Assembly: GCA_039588295.1 (NCBI GenBank)
Contig: JBDHAB010000042.1
Span: forward strand, 1-50,298
Reading direction: 5' to 3'
From: Gemmatimonadota bacterium
GTDB taxonomy: Bacteria > Gemmatimonadota > Gemmatimonadetes > Gemmatimonadales > GWC2-71-9
Length of the DNA: 50,298 nucleotides
In this document: one piece after another, positions 747 to 8,478 of the stretch
How positions within the stretch are numbered: position 1 is the stretch's first letter
Layout: every line of letters starts with the position of its first letter
Position numbers and translations under genes: made by a program
The notes under the pieces: generated by a model
What the model saw: the letters and a program-made list of their open reading frames with translations, nothing else
Database searches by the model: none
What the model was told of the DNA's origin: nothing

Positions 747-787
747 CGGCCGCGTGCAAGATTGGATTGCGACAGGCTAACCCGTCT

Positions 788-3700
788 ATGGCCACACACC
801 CTCACCTCAAAATCTTCGGCCCTCCGGTGCTTTGCGGCAGCGACGGGCGCCCAGTCCGGTTCCGCACCCGAAAGCAACTCGGGCTGGTGGTCTATCTGGC
901 GCTCGAGACCCGTATCCGGCCGGTCTCGAGGGATCTACTTGTCGAGCTGTTCTGGCAGACCGATTCCCCAGACCGGGCACGCCACTCGCTATCCCAGGCG
1001 CTCAGTGCTATCCGCCAGGTTCTGGGTAGCGGAGCGATTCCTCGAGGCGGTCGCGACGTACAGCTGAACACCACCCTGGAGACTGATCTCGACGCACTTG
1101 CGGGAGGCACCGACCTACCTGCGCAGTTCGAGCATCCACTTCGTGATCTGGATCGCAACGGCAGCGCCGAGTTTGCCCATTGGGTCGAAGGCATGAGGGC
1201 GCGCTGTCTGCGACAGATTCGAGAGAGCCTTGCACGCCAACTGAGCGAAGCAAGGGAACGGGGAAGCGTCGGCCAAGTCTACGAACGCGCAGCGAAGCTC
1301 TACCAGGTGGATCCACTGAGCGATGCCGCAGCGCAAGCGCTGGCCGAGGAGCTTCTGCTGAAGAGCGACGTGCCCGGAGCCATTCGCTTGCTCCGCTCGC
1401 ATCACGAACGCGTCCGATCCGAACTCGCCTGCAATCCACATCCGGATCTCGAACGGTTGCTTCGGCGAGTCGAAAGCGGATTGGTGCCAGCAGCCAGTGG
1501 CCTCGGAGCGAATTGTCTTGAGCCCCGGCGGCGGCGACCGTTTGTGGGACGAGAGCGTGAGTTGTCCCGTCTCGAGTCTTGGTGGGTCGAAGCCCAACGC
1601 GGAAAGCTGCGAACAGGCCTCTTGGCTGGTCCGACAGGAGTCGGCAAGACCTCCGTCCTGCGCCGCTTCACAACAGCAGTTGCGGCCCGTGCAGGCGCAG
1701 TGTGGGACGTCGCCTGCCAGGAAATGGGCCGCAACATCCCCTTCGCTGCCGTCGCCGACCTGATTCACGTCGTGTGTCACGACCGCGGTGTCGGCGGAGC
1801 CGACCCACGCTGGCTCGCGGAGGCAAGTCGCGTCGCGCCAGGGATACGGTCCGTGTTTACCGGAATCCCCGACCCGCCTCCGGTGCCGGCTGAATCGGTT
1901 CGCTTACGTTTGGCCGAGGCACTACTGCGAATGTTCGAAACAGTTGCTGATGGCGGTCCGATGATGCTGGCTCTCGATGATCTTGCGTTCCTGGATCCGG
2001 CCAGTCGAGATGTTCTACATGTACTCCTGCGACGGCTGCAGTCGCACCCTGTACTGCTTGTAGCGTCGTCACGCACTCCGGAGGCGACGAATCTCGCTCG
2101 GCGGGATGGCGGGGACATAGGAATGCCATGGCACGAGGTACTCGTTCTCCCACCTATGGCGACAGCCGAGGTCTCCGCTGTCGTCGATGGACTTTGTGGC
2201 GAGCAGGGGACTCTTTCGAACGAGACTCGCAAGGCCTTACTCGAGCTATCAGACGGGAATCCGTACCTGACCGAGATGCTAGTGTCGGACTGGCTGCGGA
2301 ACGCCGGCCAATCACTCGTCGCCGCACACAGACGGGGCGAAGGCAATATCGGCTCGTTGCACCTGCCTGATACTATGCGGCGGGCCTTCGAACGGCAGTA
2401 TCACGGGCTGACCACTGTCGCTGAACGAATGCTCCACCTCATGGCTGTCGCGGGACGTCGCGTTTCGATCACGGAAGTTCACAGCCTTCTCGGCATCGCC
2501 AAACCGGCAGCGAACCTCGCCGCGCTTGAACTGTTCGACCGAGGCCTCGTTCGTCTCGAGGACGGCAGGCTTGGCTTCACCAACGAGTTGCACCGTTCCT
2601 ATGTGTACGCGGCGATGCCAGAGGAGAGCCGGAAATTCTATCATGGACAGATGGGGGAGGCGTTGGCGACCGGCTGTTGCGCCGGTGACTTTCAGCGTCT
2701 TTTCGAATCTTCCCAACACTTCCTCAGGGGAGGGTCCACAACTGCGGCGGCTGATTCGTTAGTAGGAGGAGCCGAGCTTGCGCTTGAACGAGGCGCACCC
2801 AAAGAAGCGGAGCAAGCACTACGCCGAGTCGGTCCGCTGTGTCGGGATCGGAATACAGCCCGAATCACCACACTTCTTGCAGAGGCACTTCTCGCCCAGG
2901 GTCACCACAGCCGCGCTCTGGCTGCCGCCGACAAGGCGAGCGCATTTGCCAGATCCCCAGCCGAGGTCGCCCGGGTCGCTGCCATAAGTGCGGAGGCAAT
3001 CCTGTTCGGAAGACTTCGAGACCGAGCTGGCATCGGCCTGGCCGTACGATCTGCACTCAGTGAAGCCACCAAGGGAAACGACGAGCAGTGTCTCGCACGC
3101 GCACTGCTACTTAGCGCCGAGGTGGCGTACGACCAGGTTGACTCCGACTCGCTGAATAGCGTTGCGCGAGCGGCAGCGAATATTGTCAAGGAAGCCAAGA
3201 ACCCTTTCGTCTATTCCTCAGCTCAAATCACACTCGCCTACTGTGCCCTTGTGACCGGGCGTAGCCGTGCCGCTGCACGTCTCTTCAGCAGTGCTGCAGG
3301 TAGTCTTCGTGCGCTATCGAGGGAAAGCGATCTTCGACGAGCGCTCAACGGGCTCGGTATTGTGTTGACTAGTCTCGGCGATTGGGAGCACGCAGTTAGC
3401 TGCTTTCGGGAGGCAATTCGACTGGCGGAAAATGCGGGAGATTTCCATACACAAAGCGTGCTCTGGGATAACCTCGCAGTGCTGTACGAAGACACTGGTT
3501 CTTTTCACGATGCCGTCAAGGCACGGAGGACTGCCTTCCAACTCTCTCAGGGCTCCACATCGCCAAAACGGCTGGTCGAGCTATTCACAAATTCAGCGTC
3601 GCTTTCGATTACCCTCGGTGCGTTCTCGGAGGCAGCCTTGTGTCTAGAACAAGCAGAGCGGTTCAGCAAACAGGCGCAGCTGCACCGCCTCACCGTCTCA

Positions 3701-4183
3701 ATACTTCTTGCCCGAGCTGACTTGGGAATCGCGCAGCATCAGGACGACAGTGCCTGGGAGAACATCGAAACGGCAATTGCCGTGGCAGGAGAGCACGGGG
3801 AGAATGCACGCGGAATCGCGGATTTTGAACGGGCTAGACGACACTTTATCTGGGCAACTCAGGGGTTTGACACATTCGTTGCATGTGTGGATGACAGACA
3901 AGCTTCACGATTGGATTTGCGGATCTCACAACGACTAGAGCTGAAGGCGCTGGAGGAATGGGTGTTCCAACGTGAAGGCAAGCCCCTGCGTCGAGAATCT
4001 GTTGTGAACGAACTCCGGCAACGAGGCATATACGGAGCCATAGCCCACCTCGTTGCACTTCACATCTATCCAGGGAAGTTGCCCACCCGGCGGGCGGACG
4101 AATCTAGCGTCCGACTAGTGAAACGCGCCTTTCCGGAACACGATCAGCGGCTCGCGCCAAGAAGAGTTGGCGTTCCTCTATGA
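788..4183 (+). CDS. SARP-family (wHTH-BTAD) transcriptional regulator with STAND/AAA ATPase and C-terminal TPR-like repeats
   Basis: N-terminal LKIFGPP...LVVYLALE...SRDLLVELFW...ARHSLSQALSAIR (SARP wHTH); BTAD-like DPLSDAAAQAL; FVGRERELSRL, Walker A GPTGVGKT, Walker B LALDD, GNPY motif; helical repeats such as RALNGLGIVLTSLGDWEHAVSCFREAI. ATG at 788 preferred over TTG at 767. Confidence 0.9.
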   Translation: MATHPHLKIFGPPVLCGSDGRPVRFRTRKQLGLVVYLALETRIRPVSRDLLVELFWQTDSPDRARHSLSQALSAIRQVLGSGAIPRGGRDVQLNTTLETDLDALAGGTDLPAQFEHPLRDLDRNGSAEFAHWVEGMRARCLRQIRESLARQLSEARERGSVGQVYERAAKLYQVDPLSDAAAQALAEELLLKSDVPGAIRLLRSHHERVRSELACNPHPDLERLLRRVESGLVPAASGLGANCLEPRRRRPFVGRERELSRLESWWVEAQRGKLRTGLLAGPTGVGKTSVLRRFTTAVAARAGAVWDVACQEMGRNIPFAAVADLIHVVCHDRGVGGADPRWLAEASRVAPGIRSVFTGIPDPPPVPAESVRLRLAEALLRMFETVADGGPMMLALDDLAFLDPASRDVLHVLLRRLQSHPVLLVASSRTPEATNLARRDGGDIGMPWHEVLVLPPMATAEVSAVVDGLCGEQGTLSNETRKALLELSDGNPYLTEMLVSDWLRNAGQSLVAAHRRGEGNIGSLHLPDTMRRAFERQYHGLTTVAERMLHLMAVAGRRVSITEVHSLLGIAKPAANLAALELFDRGLVRLEDGRLGFTNELHRSYVYAAMPEESRKFYHGQMGEALATGCCAGDFQRLFESSQHFLRGGSTTAAADSLVGGAELALERGAPKEAEQALRRVGPLCRDRNTARITTLLAEALLAQGHHSRALAAADKASAFARSPAEVARVAAISAEAILFGRLRDRAGIGLAVRSALSEATKGNDEQCLARALLLSAEVAYDQVDSDSLNSVARAAANIVKEAKNPFVYSSAQITLAYCALVTGRSRAAARLFSSAAGSLRALSRESDLRRALNGLGIVLTSLGDWEHAVSCFREAIRLAENAGDFHTQSVLWDNLAVLYEDTGSFHDAVKARRTAFQLSQGSTSPKRLVELFTNSASLSITLGAFSEAALCLEQAERFSKQAQLHRLTVSILLARADLGIAQHQDDSAWENIETAIAVAGEHGENARGIADFERARRHFIWATQGFDTFVACVDDRQASRLDLRISQRLELKALEEWVFQREGKPLRRESVVNELRQRGIYGAIAHLVALHIYPGKLPTRRADESSVRLVKRAFPEHDQRLAPRRVGVPL

Positions 4184-5438
4184 GTCGACGAATGGCGGTG
4201 CTCCGCTTGAAAGCCTCAACCACATCGGGATCGAACTGCGTCCCAGCGTAGCGATCGAACTCCCTGATCACGTCCTCATAGGTGCGAGCACCCCTGTACG
4301 GCCGATCCGTCATCATCGCGTCTGCAGTGTCGGCAACCATGACGATCCTGGCACCTATCGGAATCTCGTCGCCAACAAGACCGTCCGGATAGCCGCCGCC
4401 ATCATAGTGCTCATGGTGGCACCGAACGCAGCGCTCTACATATCCTCGGAGGCTCGAGATGGTCCGCACCAATTCCGCACTTCGCCCAGGATGAGTCTGT
4501 ATCAGTTCGCGCTCAGTCGGTGAAAGGTCATCGCCCTTCCTAAGAATGGCCGCATACTCTCCGTAGATCTTTCCGACATCGTGCAGAAGTGCGGCAGTCT
4601 CGATTTGTTCAATGTCCCTAGCTGGAAGTCCTAGTGATCTCGCAATAGCTCTGGCGAAGGTCGCAACGCGAACAGAGTGACCCGAGGTATAGGGATCCCG
4701 AGCTTCGATAGACTTCACCATGAGCTCAAGGAGCTCGCGGTTCGTCTGTTCAAGCTGGAGATTGACGTGGAGTGCGTGCCGCACGAAGAAGAGTGGCACG
4801 ATGACCAGGAGTAGTCCTGACAGCTGGAGCTTGATCCACAAGAACGCGAGGAGCGGAGCCAGGGAGCTGGAAAGGACATCATGGACCAGACCCTTGACAA
4901 CGATCTGACTCCACGCTTCGCCCAACTCCGAGCGGGAACTCATGGCAACCGCCGTCGCCGCAGCTCCATTGCTCACCAGAAAATACAGGACGGTGGCGCC
5001 CAAGAACGCAGGCACCTTCATGGCCGGTTCGGCGATCCAAAGTGTTCCGCCCGCGGCGACGTAGACCCACCCTGCAAAGCCAACGGCGACGATTTCCTTC
5101 GCAGTGTTGTGAAGGATCTTAATGAGGGGCTTCCTTCTGACGACGGTCTCGGCCACCAACTCGGTTGTGCCCGCGATGACCATTGCCCACGGCGGACCGA
5201 GAAGAAGTACGGCGGACAGATAGGCGACGAAAGAGACAGCACTTGTCGCAGTCCCGACCCTTAGCCGCAGTGAGAAGAACTCGGCTAACAGGCCTAGCGC
5301 CAACAGTGCAACGAATGTGTTCCAGAACGGAATGCCCGCAGTTGAGACATCAAACTCTGCACTGGCCAGCATTGCGCCTGCCGCCAGGCAAACCGCGATC
5401 ACATAGGCGACTATGGCCGTCGGGTGTTTGATGGACAT
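4104..5438 (-). CDS. Membrane-anchored HD-GYP cyclic-dinucleotide phosphodiesterase with multi-TM N-terminal sensor domain
   Basis: About 7 hydrophobic segments in the first ~220 aa, then EARDPYTSGHS, LHDVGKI, HHEHYDGGGYPDGL, ADTADAM and RPYR; metal-ligand motifs intact. Confidence 0.93.
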   Translation of the reverse strand: MSIKHPTAIVAYVIAVCLAAGAMLASAEFDVSTAGIPFWNTFVALLALGLLAEFFSLRLRVGTATSAVSFVAYLSAVLLLGPPWAMVIAGTTELVAETVVRRKPLIKILHNTAKEIVAVGFAGWVYVAAGGTLWIAEPAMKVPAFLGATVLYFLVSNGAAATAVAMSSRSELGEAWSQIVVKGLVHDVLSSSLAPLLAFLWIKLQLSGLLLVIVPLFFVRHALHVNLQLEQTNRELLELMVKSIEARDPYTSGHSVRVATFARAIARSLGLPARDIEQIETAALLHDVGKIYGEYAAILRKGDDLSPTERELIQTHPGRSAELVRTISSLRGYVERCVRCHHEHYDGGGYPDGLVGDEIPIGARIVMVADTADAMMTDRPYRGARTYEDVIREFDRYAGTQFDPDVVEAFKRSTAIRRLIEERQLFLARAADRVPERRVSLVGR

Positions 5439-5468
5439 CTAGCTGAGGGGGTGCCCCTGGAGAAGAAG

Positions 5469-5546
5469 CTACCAACTGACGTTCCCGCCGGCCAAGAAAT
5501 ACCGCGCGAGAGCGCTGAAGAACGCGGCTAGCCAGCCTAATGCCAT
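5469..5546 (-). CDS. Small hydrophobic peptide MALGWLAAFFSALARYFLAGGNVSW (25 aa), putative signalling-peptide precursor
   Basis: ATG at 5546 to TAG at 5471-5469; strong SD AAAGGGGGTGA (5564-5554) 7 nt upstream; ends 30 nt before the HD-GYP start on the same strand; below the ORF-track length cutoff. Confidence 0.75.
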   Translation of the reverse strand: MALGWLAAFFSALARYFLAGGNVSW

Positions 5547-5553
5547 GAGAGCC

Positions 5554-5564
5554 TCACCCCCTTT
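5554..5564 (-). promoter_or_regulatory. Shine-Dalgarno site of the 25-aa peptide
   Basis: Minus strand reads GAAAGGGGGTGAggctctcATG. Confidence 0.75.
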
Positions 5565-5962
5565 CCGCAGTCCCTAACGACCTGCTTGGGTAGTAGCGCA
5601 CCCCGCTACGGTACGCCCGAGGCTCCGCTCGTTACTGCTGACCGATCCGCTCCGCTCTCCTTCTCCGGGGGCCCCCTAATCTCCTTTCCAAAGCTTCTTG
5701 GTCCCGTTTTGCGCGCAAGACGATTTTCTCTGTGAGACGCTCGCGCGCCGAACGGCTCCTACCTGCTATGGCCAAGGAACAAAGCGGGCGGGTCCAGCTG
5801 GGGACATCCCAGCCCGGCCAGCCCTCAGCCGAAAAAACCAATCTATGTATCCGCCACCCGGCGGTCCGTCACTGCGAGACCACCAGCGGCGTAGGATTAC
5901 GACCCAACAGCGGGGCTTAGAACCTACACCCCGATCGGCCTGTCCACTAGCCCCCCACCCGC

Positions 5963-6676
5963 CTAGGCCGGCGTCCGGGCCTGGAGCCACCGGTTGGTGG
6001 CGTCCAGCACCGCCAGGATCGCCGCACGCTCGGCACTCTCGCGCAACGGGGCGGTCCCCATCACCATCTCCGGATCGCGCCCTTCCACGACCTGCACACC
6101 CACCACCACGAGCCGCTGCTCGAACGCCTCCACCACCTTCACACCCTCCAGCTCCATGGCCCCCACCGCCAACGGCTGCTCCAAGACGCCCAACGCCGCC
6201 CGCGCCGCGGCCTGCATGCGCGCACGCGTGGTGTCGGCCACTTCCTCCTCCGCCTGCGCCTCCGCCCCACCCACCATCAGGGTGACCCTGACCCGCGTGC
6301 GATGCTCGCCCACGGAGACCATCTCCAAATGCTTGAACACCACGCTCCGGCGAATCGCCTCCACCCGGACCGCCTCCTGATCGAGCGCCTCGATGGGACG
6401 GACGTCGGCCGTCTGCGCCACACTGATCTTGCGATGATCCACCTTGAGGCCGAGCTGCGCCAGGAGGGCGCTCTCGACGTTGCGGACCACCTGCTTGGGC
6501 GAGAGCCCCGCATGCGTGAGCACGTGGACCGCCGTCACCTCACCGATCGGCGAGACCTCGACCCGCGCCGACAGCACGTCCTGCAAGCTCGTCAACAGGT
6601 TCTCCGCCCGCTTCACTCCCCACGGATCGGGGGACCGCGCGGCGTCGGGCGGCGTCGGAGGCGTCTCGGTCCTCAT
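5963..6676 (-). CDS. Conserved hypothetical two-domain protein
   Basis: High-GC3 ORF with globular-looking sequence VHVLTHAGLSPKQVVRNVESALLAQLGLKVDHRKISVAQ and C-terminal AILAVLDATNRWL; ATG at 6676 (alternative GTG at 6691). Confidence 0.8.
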   Translation of the reverse strand: MRTETPPTPPDAARSPDPWGVKRAENLLTSLQDVLSARVEVSPIGEVTAVHVLTHAGLSPKQVVRNVESALLAQLGLKVDHRKISVAQTADVRPIEALDQEAVRVEAIRRSVVFKHLEMVSVGEHRTRVRVTLMVGGAEAQAEEEVADTTRARMQAAARAALGVLEQPLAVGAMELEGVKVVEAFEQRLVVVGVQVVEGRDPEMVMGTAPLRESAERAAILAVLDATNRWLQARTPA

Positions 6677-6738
6677 CCCTGGATCGCTCACTCGCAGTTC
6701 TCCACTGACGTCACCGATCGTCCACCACCACAGACGAC

Positions 6739-8478
6739 CTAGGTTTGCAACGTGATCGGGCCGGTGTCCGATTCCCCCTCGGACTCCCCGAAGACCACCA
6801 AGTTACCACCGGCCGCCTTCGCCCGATACAGGGCCCGGTCCGCGCTGCGCAGCACATCGTCCGGCAGACGGTTCACCGGATCGTAACTGATCGCCCCCAC
6901 CGACGCTGTGACGCGGCGCTCATCGTACCCCAGCGACTGGCTCACCCGCTCGACCGACGACCGCATGAGCTCGCCCACGTGCAGCACCCCCTCCCGCCCC
7001 GTTCCCACCAGCACCACCACGAACTCGTCGCCCCCATAGCGGACCGCGACGTCCGTGGCACGCACGACCCGCCGGATCTCCCGCCCGATCGCCGCCAGCA
7101 AGATATTGCCGGCCTGGTGCCCGTGCACGTCGTTGATCTCCTTGAACCCGTCGAGGTCCAAGAACAGCACGCCGCACGGCTCCTGCGTACGATGGCTGCG
7201 CGCGATTTCCTGCGCCAGCCGATCCTGCAACACGCGGTAGGTCGACAGCCCCGTCAGATCGTCCACCGCCGACTGCTTCCGCGCCTCCGCCGCCTTCCGT
7301 TCCTGATACGGCGGACACTGACGGAACGTCGCGCGACCGCGCATCAACGCCCGGGCAAACTCCCGGCAACCCGCGTAGCCGCACGCCCCACAGTCCCACG
7401 GCGCACCGCTGGGCGCCGTACCGATCTCGCTCACCACCCAGTCGAGATCGCCCGTCGAGGGCTCCTTCCCGTCCGTCGCACCCTCGAACGTGGCGGCCAC
7501 CGGGACCCACACCCCGGGATCCACCACCGGCGTGGGGCTGCGCGGAGGCTCGGCCTCCTGCGCCAACCGGCGCCGGTGGAACAGCTCCTCGCGCGGACCC
7601 AGCAGCGGATGGTCGAGACACCCCTCACAGGGCAACAGGTCGACAAACCCGAGATCGACCTTGTCCACCACCACCGCCCGCGCGATCACGTCCAGCGCGG
7701 TGATGCCCCGCACCTTGCGGAACCGACGGCTCGTCTGCGGCTCGACCGCGAGCACCGGCAGCGGCAACCCGCCGGGCGTGCTCACATACCGCTGGCGCAC
7801 CCCCGGGATGCGCGTGAAGTAGCGCGACTGATCGGCTACCACCACCCCGCGCCGCCGCAACAACTCCTCCAACTCGGTGAACGTCAGAACCGCATCGACG
7901 TCCTCGTTCCCATCCGCCACGCATACACCCGTATACACGATGCTCGCGTCCCGCCCGTGCGTCGCGCGGAGGTACGCGGCCTCCGCCGCCAGCGGCGTCA
8001 TGATCGGCGCGAGATACGGCACGAGTTCGGGATAGTCGTGCCGGATCTTCTCCACCACCACCGGGCAGGTCGAGCGGATCCGCGTCCCCCACCCGGGATC
8101 GTCCAACAGCCGCCGGTACTCCTCCGCGACCAGCTCGTCTCCCACCACACCCCGGGACACGACCGCGAACCCCGCCGCATGACACGCGTTGATCACCTGC
8201 TCCGGCGCGTGTGGGTGGAAGTGGACATCCGCCTCCACGCTCAGCACCAGGATCGCGTCACCACGCTCGGCCAGCGCTAGCCCCTGGCTGAGGTCCCCCA
8301 CGGCGTCGATCGCGTCGTGTGGGCACGCCGGCACGCACGCACCGACACGAATGCACGACTCATCGACGATTCTGACCGTCGTGCCGTCCACCGCGATGGC
8401 CTGAGAGGGACACACACGGACACACGCCAGGCAGGCGACACACTTGTCGTTTACCTCAAACCGCACGGCCCGCCCCAC
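6739..8478 (-). CDS. Diguanylate cyclase with 2x[4Fe-4S] ferredoxin, [FeFe]-hydrogenase large-subunit-like and FeS sensory domains
   Basis: CVACLACVRVCP and CIRVGACVPACP; hydrogenase-fold motifs RSTCP, TGVCV, DLLPCEGC; DCGACGYAGC...CPPY FeS domain; DDLTGL, DLDGFKEIND, RATD I-site, YGGDEF, ADRALYRAK. Start GTG at 8478 or 8466. Confidence 0.9.
   Translation of the reverse strand: MGRAVRFEVNDKCVACLACVRVCPSQAIAVDGTTVRIVDESCIRVGACVPACPHDAIDAVGDLSQGLALAERGDAILVLSVEADVHFHPHAPEQVINACHAAGFAVVSRGVVGDELVAEEYRRLLDDPGWGTRIRSTCPVVVEKIRHDYPELVPYLAPIMTPLAAEAAYLRATHGRDASIVYTGVCVADGNEDVDAVLTFTELEELLRRRGVVVADQSRYFTRIPGVRQRYVSTPGGLPLPVLAVEPQTSRRFRKVRGITALDVIARAVVVDKVDLGFVDLLPCEGCLDHPLLGPREELFHRRRLAQEAEPPRSPTPVVDPGVWVPVAATFEGATDGKEPSTGDLDWVVSEIGTAPSGAPWDCGACGYAGCREFARALMRGRATFRQCPPYQERKAAEARKQSAVDDLTGLSTYRVLQDRLAQEIARSHRTQEPCGVLFLDLDGFKEINDVHGHQAGNILLAAIGREIRRVVRATDVAVRYGGDEFVVVLVGTGREGVLHVGELMRSSVERVSQSLGYDERRVTASVGAISYDPVNRLPDDVLRSADRALYRAKAAGGNLVVFGESEGESDTGPITLQT

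Follow-up and report, generated by a model that had tools for sequence, protein, structure and literature searches.

Introduction

Small membrane proteins such as MgrB and SafA tune the sensor PhoQ. In Phr, ComS and SHP systems a short gene lies beside the gene of the receptor and encodes a hydrophobic N-terminal part followed by a short C-terminal tail, with Trp occurring in ComS tails. At the RNA level, TRAP and HutP are amino-acid-activated RNA-binding attenuators, of which TRAP binds (G/U)AG repeats.

Known proteins that combine a MASE9 membrane domain with an HD-GYP domain are T. maritima TM1467 and S. venezuelae HdgA (10.1101/2021.11.05.467447, PMC6205966; available text). Galperin and Chou suggested ligand binding by MASE9 within the membrane, and the available text of their paper names no ligand (10.1101/2021.11.05.467447). 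According to the accessible part of the Streptomyces study, HdgA, the one member studied so far, was without phenotype and its authors suspected that an activating signal was missing (PMC6205966). Receptors that use the S-component fold are the 5TMR-LYT kinases BtsS and YpdA, which have small-molecule ligands and in which the C-terminus of H6 is inside the cell and the pocket outside (PMC11109136, available sections).

Here we describe a locus in the window, that is the whole stretch of Gemmatimonadota DNA that was analysed (50,298 nt), in which a micro-gene and a structured leader precede the gene of a predicted enzyme with the architecture of the MASE9-HD-GYP phosphodiesterases (Table 1). 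We propose that its product, like MgrB and SafA, is a hydrophobic protein of fewer than 50 aa that acts on a membrane sensor; unlike them, it has no sequence link to either protein, its target would be a c-di-GMP enzyme, its gene adjoins that of the target in a shared RNA structure, and its helix is amphipathic. The arrangement resembles Phr, ComS and SHP in that a short gene for a hydrophobic N-part and a short tail with Trp stands beside the gene of a putative receptor, but in contrast to these and to double-glycine peptides the receptor is neither of the RRNPP type nor an outside-loop kinase, GG is not conserved and no exporter is adjacent. With TRAP and HutP it shares short (G/U)AG-type leader repeats and a linked protein whose fold is predicted to be of an amino-acid-binding kind, whereas the fold of that 242-aa protein is a different one (a LeuA-type regulatory domain and a small alpha-beta domain) and its RNA binding is putative. 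As far as the available text of the two papers goes, a hidden Shine-Dalgarno sequence (SD) and a long-range helix that depends on translation are also found in mgtQ-mgtB (PMC8092293) and aapA (PMC6733600), but here the product is under protein-level selection and the leader has no Rfam family. The sensor is predicted to use the S-component fold with an extra N-terminal helix, as 5TMR-LYT does (PMC11109136, available sections), but in the opposite orientation, judged by its additional helix H7 and the distribution of charges. The words 'peptide' and 'small ORF' are absent from the main text of Galperin and Chou (10.1101/2021.11.05.467447), the main text of PMC11109136 mentions neither MASE nor HD-GYP, and the available text on MASE9-HD-GYP proteins names no S-component fold or leader (10.1101/2021.11.05.467447, PMC6205966). 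Searches of the openly accessible literature gave no paper on a partner of MASE9, be it a peptide, a leader or a protease.

Table 1. Features of the locus (positions in the window) and of related loci with a protease gene.
Feature	Position or loci	Strand	Remarks
Micro-gene	5469..5546	minus	25 aa; amphipathic hydrophobic helix and short Trp-ended tail
SD of micro-gene, AAAGGGGGTGA	5554..5564	minus	mostly paired in the predicted fold
MASE9-HD-GYP gene	4104..5438	minus	444 aa; MASE9-like membrane domain (residues ~7-238) and HD-GYP; predicted c-di-GMP phosphodiesterase
242-aa protein gene	5963..6691	minus	no Pfam family; small alpha-beta N-domain and LeuA/citramalate synthase regulatory-type C-domain
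Leader core	5548..5626	minus	P1, P2, P3
Helix P1	5619-5626 with 5548-5555	minus	closes over SD-to-ATG spacer
Hairpin P2	5610-5617 with 5595-5602	minus	8 bp; conserved TAGCG loop
Anti-SD helix P3		minus	weak in window copy
AGCG(G/A)AG-type repeats	5622..5657 (5649-5657, 5622-5630 and a copy in the P2 loop)	minus	five-base steps between copies; candidate protein-binding sites
P0 5' arm	5657..5677	minus	
P0 3' arm	5446..5468	minus	begins at peptide stop; spans most of the 30-nt gap
S8 protease with tandem Trp-pentamer tail	L203, L222, L229, L231, L232, L234, L239, L240, L262, L263, L265, L266		before MASE9 kinase or GGDEF-EAL genes

Results

A conserved micro-gene ahead of the sensor gene

The micro-ORF runs from an ATG to a TAG stop and its product, MALGWLAAFFSALARYFLAGGNVSW, has no match in Pfam or NCBIfam. 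Its SD is separated from the ATG by a spacer of 7 nt, and a gap of 30 nt lies between its stop and the ATG at 5438 of the HD-GYP gene, a gene that lacks an SD at the usual distance. An earlier note on this DNA had described a 25-aa ORF with a very strong SD at 7 nt before a membrane HD-GYP gene with a poorer one, and all of this holds, down to the exact peptide sequence; of the interval that it gave, 5469..5564 with no strand, 5469-5546 is the ORF, but the end at 5564 is the edge of the SD.

A search of 301 genomes from the phylum found the MASE9-like sensor part in 155; this is one of only two tallies in which the unpublished genomes G157, G393 and G425 are counted. Of the roughly 160 matches, 90 (30 loci and 60 regions) were inspected for an ORF of 13-36 aa with a near-perfect SD that ends at most 100 nt from the sensor gene. 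With the window and three loci with less than 150 nt upstream excluded, 86 loci remain, and in 80 of them the orthologous sensor gene has such a micro-ORF in front of it. As a control, 2182 long ORFs of the window's genome served as gene proxies; 35 of them fit the rule, one of the 35 being this very locus. Here, as in all counts below, related loci are not independent. Five of the six other loci have a hydrophobic ORF with a weaker SD, and the sixth has none and an interrupted sensor match. A metagenome scan with the MASE9 part returned one weak locus (L031), which is left out of every count. The micro-ORF is a real gene, since an SD-led ORF is found at nearly all sensor loci and at very few control genes.

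There are 82 distinct peptides in the phylum, 14-35 aa long, among them that of L078, which looks damaged and was retained. Trp falls within the last three residues in 73 and the remaining nine end in I, L, F or V; only 19 have a GG among their 12 C-terminal residues. In 71 of 73 peptides the helical hydrophobic moment is above that of shuffled sequences (mean z 1.6). The frame contrast in hydrophobicity is partly circular, as the candidates were ranked by SD and hydrophobicity, whereas the count of 80/86 uses the SD alone. Across 13 disjoint close pairs dN/dS is 0.31 (Fisher p 3e-9), and the window copy differs from the micro-ORF of its nearest relative by 10 silent and three replacement changes. 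Judged by these substitutions, the micro-ORF is under purifying selection. The amphipathic or hydrophobic helix that had been read from the window copy recurs among the peptides of the phylum, small ORFs do recur upstream of HD-GYP homologues as the note had suggested looking for, and the lack of purifying selection that it named as a counter-argument is not seen; of the (A/G)G-x-x-x-W-like tail that it expected, the terminal Trp is common and the GG is not. Apparently damaged copies are found at L065, with in-frame TGA stops in the sensor gene, at L067, with an interrupted sensor match and no micro-ORF, and at L078, with an altered peptide and no P0 arm after its stop.

The micro-gene accompanies MASE9 in other phyla

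In two named Bacillota plasmid records an unannotated peptide lies between a homologue of the 242-aa protein and an HD-GYP gene. We also selected 80 genome loci by the 242-aa family alone, mostly from Bacillota and Armatimonadota, and dropped five short ones. By the strict rule a micro-ORF is present in 59 of the 61 loci with MASE9 (one of which, L171, is identical to a same-phylum locus) versus one of the 14 without it, and in the remaining two MASE9 loci it is visible by eye. Loci picked by PF20972 only, from the two phyla to which an Actinomycetota-labelled genome and a Chloroflexales-labelled one belong (52 of 54 examined), show a clear peptide by eye in 29 cases, 25 before HD-GYP genes, three before kinases, all histidine kinases, and one unassigned; in the other 23 no clear micro-ORF is present in the stretch first examined. 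At least 12 of the 29 have neither leader repeats nor an adjacent 242-aa gene, and there is one case of a GGDEF-EAL MASE9 gene with a micro-ORF. Because the peptide persists when the output domain or the repeats change, the constant partner of the micro-gene is, as far as gene order tells, the MASE9 membrane domain and neither the output domain nor the leader. The tie to the membrane sensor that the note had drawn from the window is therefore found inside the phylum and outside it alike.

Homologues of the 242-aa protein also stand before genes without MASE9 and without a micro-ORF in the Moorella group (L143, L145, L150, L151 and L156), and those of Sulfobacillus (L146, L165 and L166) likewise have no downstream MASE9 or micro-ORF; one genome with a MASE9-less homologue has a complete second unit elsewhere (L174). 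In a Natranaerobius plasmid (L093, NZ_CP144220.1, 4938-6229) the MASE9-HD-GYP gene is split into two frames, with leader and peptide intact. Cultured carriers of the unit that are not pathogens are Natranaerobius thermophilus, Thermosediminibacter and Thermovorax.

A further set of 40 loci was chosen as long or peptide-less MASE9 forms, so that the following proportion is not a family-wide rate: in 10 of the 40 an S8 protease gene ends -7 to 81 nt upstream of the MASE9 gene. Each of the ten proteases ends in a tail built of Trp-containing repeats of five residues, a signal peptide is visible by eye in all of them, and none occurs with a micro-ORF; of the other 30 loci, three have a micro-ORF and no protease and in 27 neither was seen. 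Two more Trp-pentamer proteases were found at L203 and L222. The replacement of the micro-ORF by Trp-tailed proteases supports, at the level of gene arrangement, short Trp peptides as the probable MASE9 ligand. Tandem MASE9 genes, a kinase and a second MASE9 gene, are present at L258-L261 and L268, where no micro-ORF or protease was seen in the fetched stretch.

The sensor is predicted to be an inverted S-component

The window enzyme matches HD_5 with an E of 2e-33 and its HD, HHE and GYP motifs, which are present in 79 of 79 full-length copies, are intact; it is predicted to be a c-di-GMP phosphodiesterase. Its residues 1-235 have 86 homologues besides itself, most of them marked PF20972 (MASE9). 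The PF20972 profile gives no direct match on the window enzyme, and a profile built from the phylum does match the loci picked by PF20972.

A model of residues 1-239 (pLDDT 91.9) was compared with known structures. The top 14 matches among 48,161 chains are all ECF S-components (VIA; Z 11.1-14.4, the next match 7.8), superposing with an rmsd of 2.9-4.3 over 153-189 residues (VIA), and S-components rank first in Foldseek as well, the best at E 8.6e-3 and none under E 0.001. The six-helix S-component core corresponds to residues ~33-207, with one extra helix on each side. We predict from the model that MASE9 has the ECF S-component fold in inverted orientation, with the pocket facing the cytoplasm, since the HD-GYP domain must be cytoplasmic and follows an extra last helix. 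The loop charges agree with this: K+R versus D+E is 1.08/0.42 in L1, 3.55/0.22 in L3 and 2.35/1.75 in L5, as opposed to 0.57/1.2 in L0 and 0.7/1.3 in L4, and the basic L1, L3 and L5 and acidic L0 and L4 place the pocket face inside the cell. Invariant or near-invariant polar residues are found at positions 111 and 156 of the window enzyme, on helices that in S-components line the pocket. Among 30 MASE9 positions checked on a quick tree, none tracks the loss of Trp.

Complex prediction for the pair of a relative (L049, with a 31-aa peptide that is not the window's) gave a score of 0.53 and no interface, and the best control scored 0.00. In the calibration 116 of 157 solved pairs came up to the mark, as did two of 215 mismatched pairs, and scores of up to 0.60 among those reaching it came from 18 of the 157 solved pairs and both mismatches. 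Contact agreement between the L049 runs was at least 95% and the partner pLDDT at least 72. These predictions lend weak support to the pairing of the L049 peptide with MASE9.

Leader RNA and a long-range helix

Among relatives, P1 shows a C-G/G-C swap and P2 many G-U pairs. In the alignment of P1-P3, whose 48 rows include about one third with a different core, 82.8% of cells are paired compared with 36-48% in slid controls, eight pairs show two-sided change, and the two-sided changes number 45 versus 15.8 in shuffles. The leader helices thus covary, and the SD of the micro-ORF is predicted to be hidden in the fold.

A second element, P0, is a long helix whose 5' arm lies about 100-130 nt ahead of the ATG and whose 3' arm takes in the bases directly after the stop, starting at the stop codon or a few bases from it in most loci. 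Own arms pair with -37.4 kcal/mol versus -27.8 kcal/mol for crossed arms, and 54 of 81 own pairs fall in the best tenth of crossed pairs; outside the phylum 34 of 61 are in the best tenth, in a set that includes the two plasmid records. When 5425-5700 is folded, the bases of 5446-5458 pair with 5657-5677 at probabilities of 0.6-1.0, whereas the fold of 5400-5600 alone is unremarkable (z 0.47), as the structure needs the upstream arm. The AGGGG/CCCCT stem that had been proposed at 5446-5458 can be drawn (5 bp with a 3-nt loop), but its bases prefer P0; the translational coupling to the HD-GYP gene that it was to explain is plausible by way of the long-range helix and not by way of the 5-bp stem. 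With the ORF and 10 nt forced open, the G-run at 5454-5457 and the outer G-C stem remain paired in the equilibrium fold, and in most cases 9-19 nt separate the G-run from the enzyme ATG. Both the modelled fold and this spacing speak against a simple unmasking of an SD for the enzyme, so that coupling would be kinetic, or transcriptional where a U-run follows. U-rich runs after P0 were seen by eye in many Bacillota loci; in the window there is none.

Most leaders have four to six copies of AGCG, where 0.92 would be expected, and the distances between copies peak at 5 and 10; in the other-phylum set the repeat motif occurs in 46 of 61 leaders. The repeat pair of the window leader is single-copy in the genome. 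In searches of Rfam 15, 15 phylum loci at E up to 5 gave only two chance matches elsewhere, and 20 other-phylum loci at the gathering score gave only tRNAs. A c-di-GMP riboswitch was dropped as a candidate since Rfam gave no match. CsrA is present and was considered as the repeat-binder; it is a weak candidate, as many repeats read GAA and not GGA. A sigma-54 promoter pattern was found in one of 81 upstream regions and no sigma-70-like site in 4500-7500 of the window. Just outside the P0 5' arm, a terminator-like hairpin lies at 5705-5722 (plus strand), possibly by chance (two found versus 1.6 expected).

The 242-aa protein and neighbouring genes

Of 81 loci whose DNA reaches far enough upstream, 75 have a gene of the 242-aa family there. 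Homologues carry Gemmatimonadota labels, the protein atlas has hypothetical clusters only, and unannotated proteins of this type, 220-250 aa long, amount to 1454 representatives at E 0.001. The model (pLDDT 88.3) relates the C-domain to LeuA (Foldseek E 1.9e-6) and to the Ile-bound CMS domain (VIA; Z 9.3, rmsd 3.2, 109 of 115 aligned), while the N-domain gives generic matches to small alpha-beta folds (Z 7.6-9.5); a KH-like RNA-binding role of the latter would be a guess. Where the leader has at least two repeats and no same-strand 242-aa neighbour, the genome encodes the protein in nine of nine cases, the gene often being divergent next door, versus two of 16 genomes without repeats, in a comparison that uses rough repeat counts (windows of 150 or 300 nt), incomplete genomes and related taxa. 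In both of the zero-repeat genomes that encode the family, the gene is beside another MASE9 copy. From this co-occurrence and the generic fold we infer that the 242-aa protein is the repeat-binding factor of the leader. The genome gave no match to DUF5317, which lies downstream in both Bacillota plasmid records.

Immediately upstream of the 242-aa gene and on the same strand, 6739-8478 (minus) encodes an Fe-S/FeFe-hydrogenase-like/GGDEF fusion. Of the 27 loci that extend 1400 nt upstream, 10 have a GGDEF gene in the equivalent position; the fusion in the window is likely, by its domains, a redox-linked cyclase clustered with the phosphodiesterase. On the other side, 767-4183 (plus) encodes a convergent 1138-aa STAND-type ATPase with TPR repeats, the 3' end of which overlaps the HD-GYP end by about 80 nt. 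G+C is 0.58-0.61 around this gene versus 0.68-0.70 in the genes upstream of the leader.

Discussion

The reading that we favour, with a probability of roughly 0.55, is that the peptide is a partner of MASE9 inside the cell or within the membrane, that the leader gates peptide synthesis, and that this synthesis is coupled to that of the enzyme. The peptide helix would lie on the inner membrane face and its Trp tail would enter the MASE9 pocket, which may switch the enzyme on more probably than off, the direction being a guess. The SD of the micro-ORF would stay hidden until the 242-aa protein, a likely amino-acid-sensing RNA-binding protein, acts on the leader repeats, and translation of the micro-ORF would then disfavour P0 over the gap, so that synthesis of the enzyme would be coupled to that of its partner. 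Among the ideas of the earlier note, an intramembrane regulator of the phosphodiesterase fits best, by the complex score, the inverted fold and the loop charges. A more far-reaching version is possible but stands well short of even odds: MASE9 may be a widespread receptor of short Trp-ended peptides that uses an inverted vitamin-transporter fold and draws on one of two sources, an adjacent micro-gene or the tail repeats of a secreted protease; in this lineage the micro-gene would be gated by a new amino-acid-sensing RNA-binding protein on a new leader, in which case nutrient status would pass through the peptide to c-di-GMP.

The peptide might instead be exported as a pheromone precursor and cut, its Trp-ended tail coming back to MASE9 from outside or being re-imported like Phr, which we consider unlikely on balance. 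A precursor layout with GG as a processing site had been read from the window, and outside the phylum several traits agree with it: 56 of 58 peptides begin with a basic, signal-peptide-like stretch, GG occurs in 30 of 58, and many have an LAGGA-type motif before the tail. Armatimonadota-type peptides (L110-L114, L116, L118-L120, L128 and L138) are 38-47 aa long; their N-part resembles a signal peptide, their polar tail is rich in Tyr and Pro, and they appear from their sequences to be the best candidates for true export. These basic N-termini, together with the secreted-type Trp-pentamer proteases that never occur with a micro-ORF, keep the export reading alive. Receptors of the S-component fold for outside ligands also exist (PMC11109136, available sections). 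In the lineage of the window this layout is not supported: only 12 of 81 phylum peptides have K or R in the first six residues, the window peptide and 69 of the 81 are amphipathic and have no basic N-region, and GG, seen in 19 of 82, finds no support as a processing site. No exporter or protease gene adjoins the micro-ORF in the window, no transporter-fused C39 peptidase was found in the genome (96% complete), and its only C39 match is marginal, a stand-alone 305-aa frame. The pocket face, moreover, is predicted to be inside, and an outside source of the peptide could be reconciled with an inward pocket only via re-import or entry through the membrane.

A second alternative leaves the peptide as a by-product of a pure cis element, in which the translating ribosome opens P0 or blocks a long-range terminator. 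The position of the P0 3' arm at or near the stop, which recurs outside the phylum, the U-rich runs of Bacillota loci and the lack of a good SD for the enzyme gene all agree with it, and mgtQ before mgtB is a precedent (PMC8092293, available text). It is nonetheless quite improbable in view of the purifying selection, the amphipathic pattern and the conservative changes of Trp to I, L or F; the peptide stays with MASE9 despite a changed output domain or changed repeats, Trp-pentamer proteases take the place of the micro-ORF, and the window has no U-run after P0. Tryptophan sensing by attenuation, with a ribosome stalled at the Trp codon or a TRAP-like protein on the five-base repeats, would suit the terminal Trp of most peptides, the repeat spacing and the amino-acid-binding type of fold of the 242-aa protein. 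We regard it as very improbable: there is a single Trp codon, which has given way to I, L, F or other residues on several branches (seven changes, quick tree), TRAP was not found in the 96% complete genome, and the regulated gene is not a Trp gene. The least weight of all goes to a type I toxin-like system, in which a membrane-active peptide would be silenced by anti-SD pairing and a 5'-3' long-distance helix. Its RNA logic is that of aapA and hok mRNAs (PMC6733600, available text) and the product is likewise small and hydrophobic, but the peptide matches no Pfam or NCBIfam family, the leader repeat pair is single-copy, the gene is tied to MASE9 across phyla, and no antisense RNA was identified (Rfam blank).

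Many phyla have c-di-GMP enzymes and kinases that carry MASE9, an orphan sensor, and an encoded peptide partner, as in the reading that we favour, would address the question of its ligand. If this is true, peptides would be added to the ligands of the S-component fold and the fold would be seen in inward-facing use. A leader RNA not described before would be added as well, and the large unannotated family of 220-250 aa proteins would gain a candidate function.
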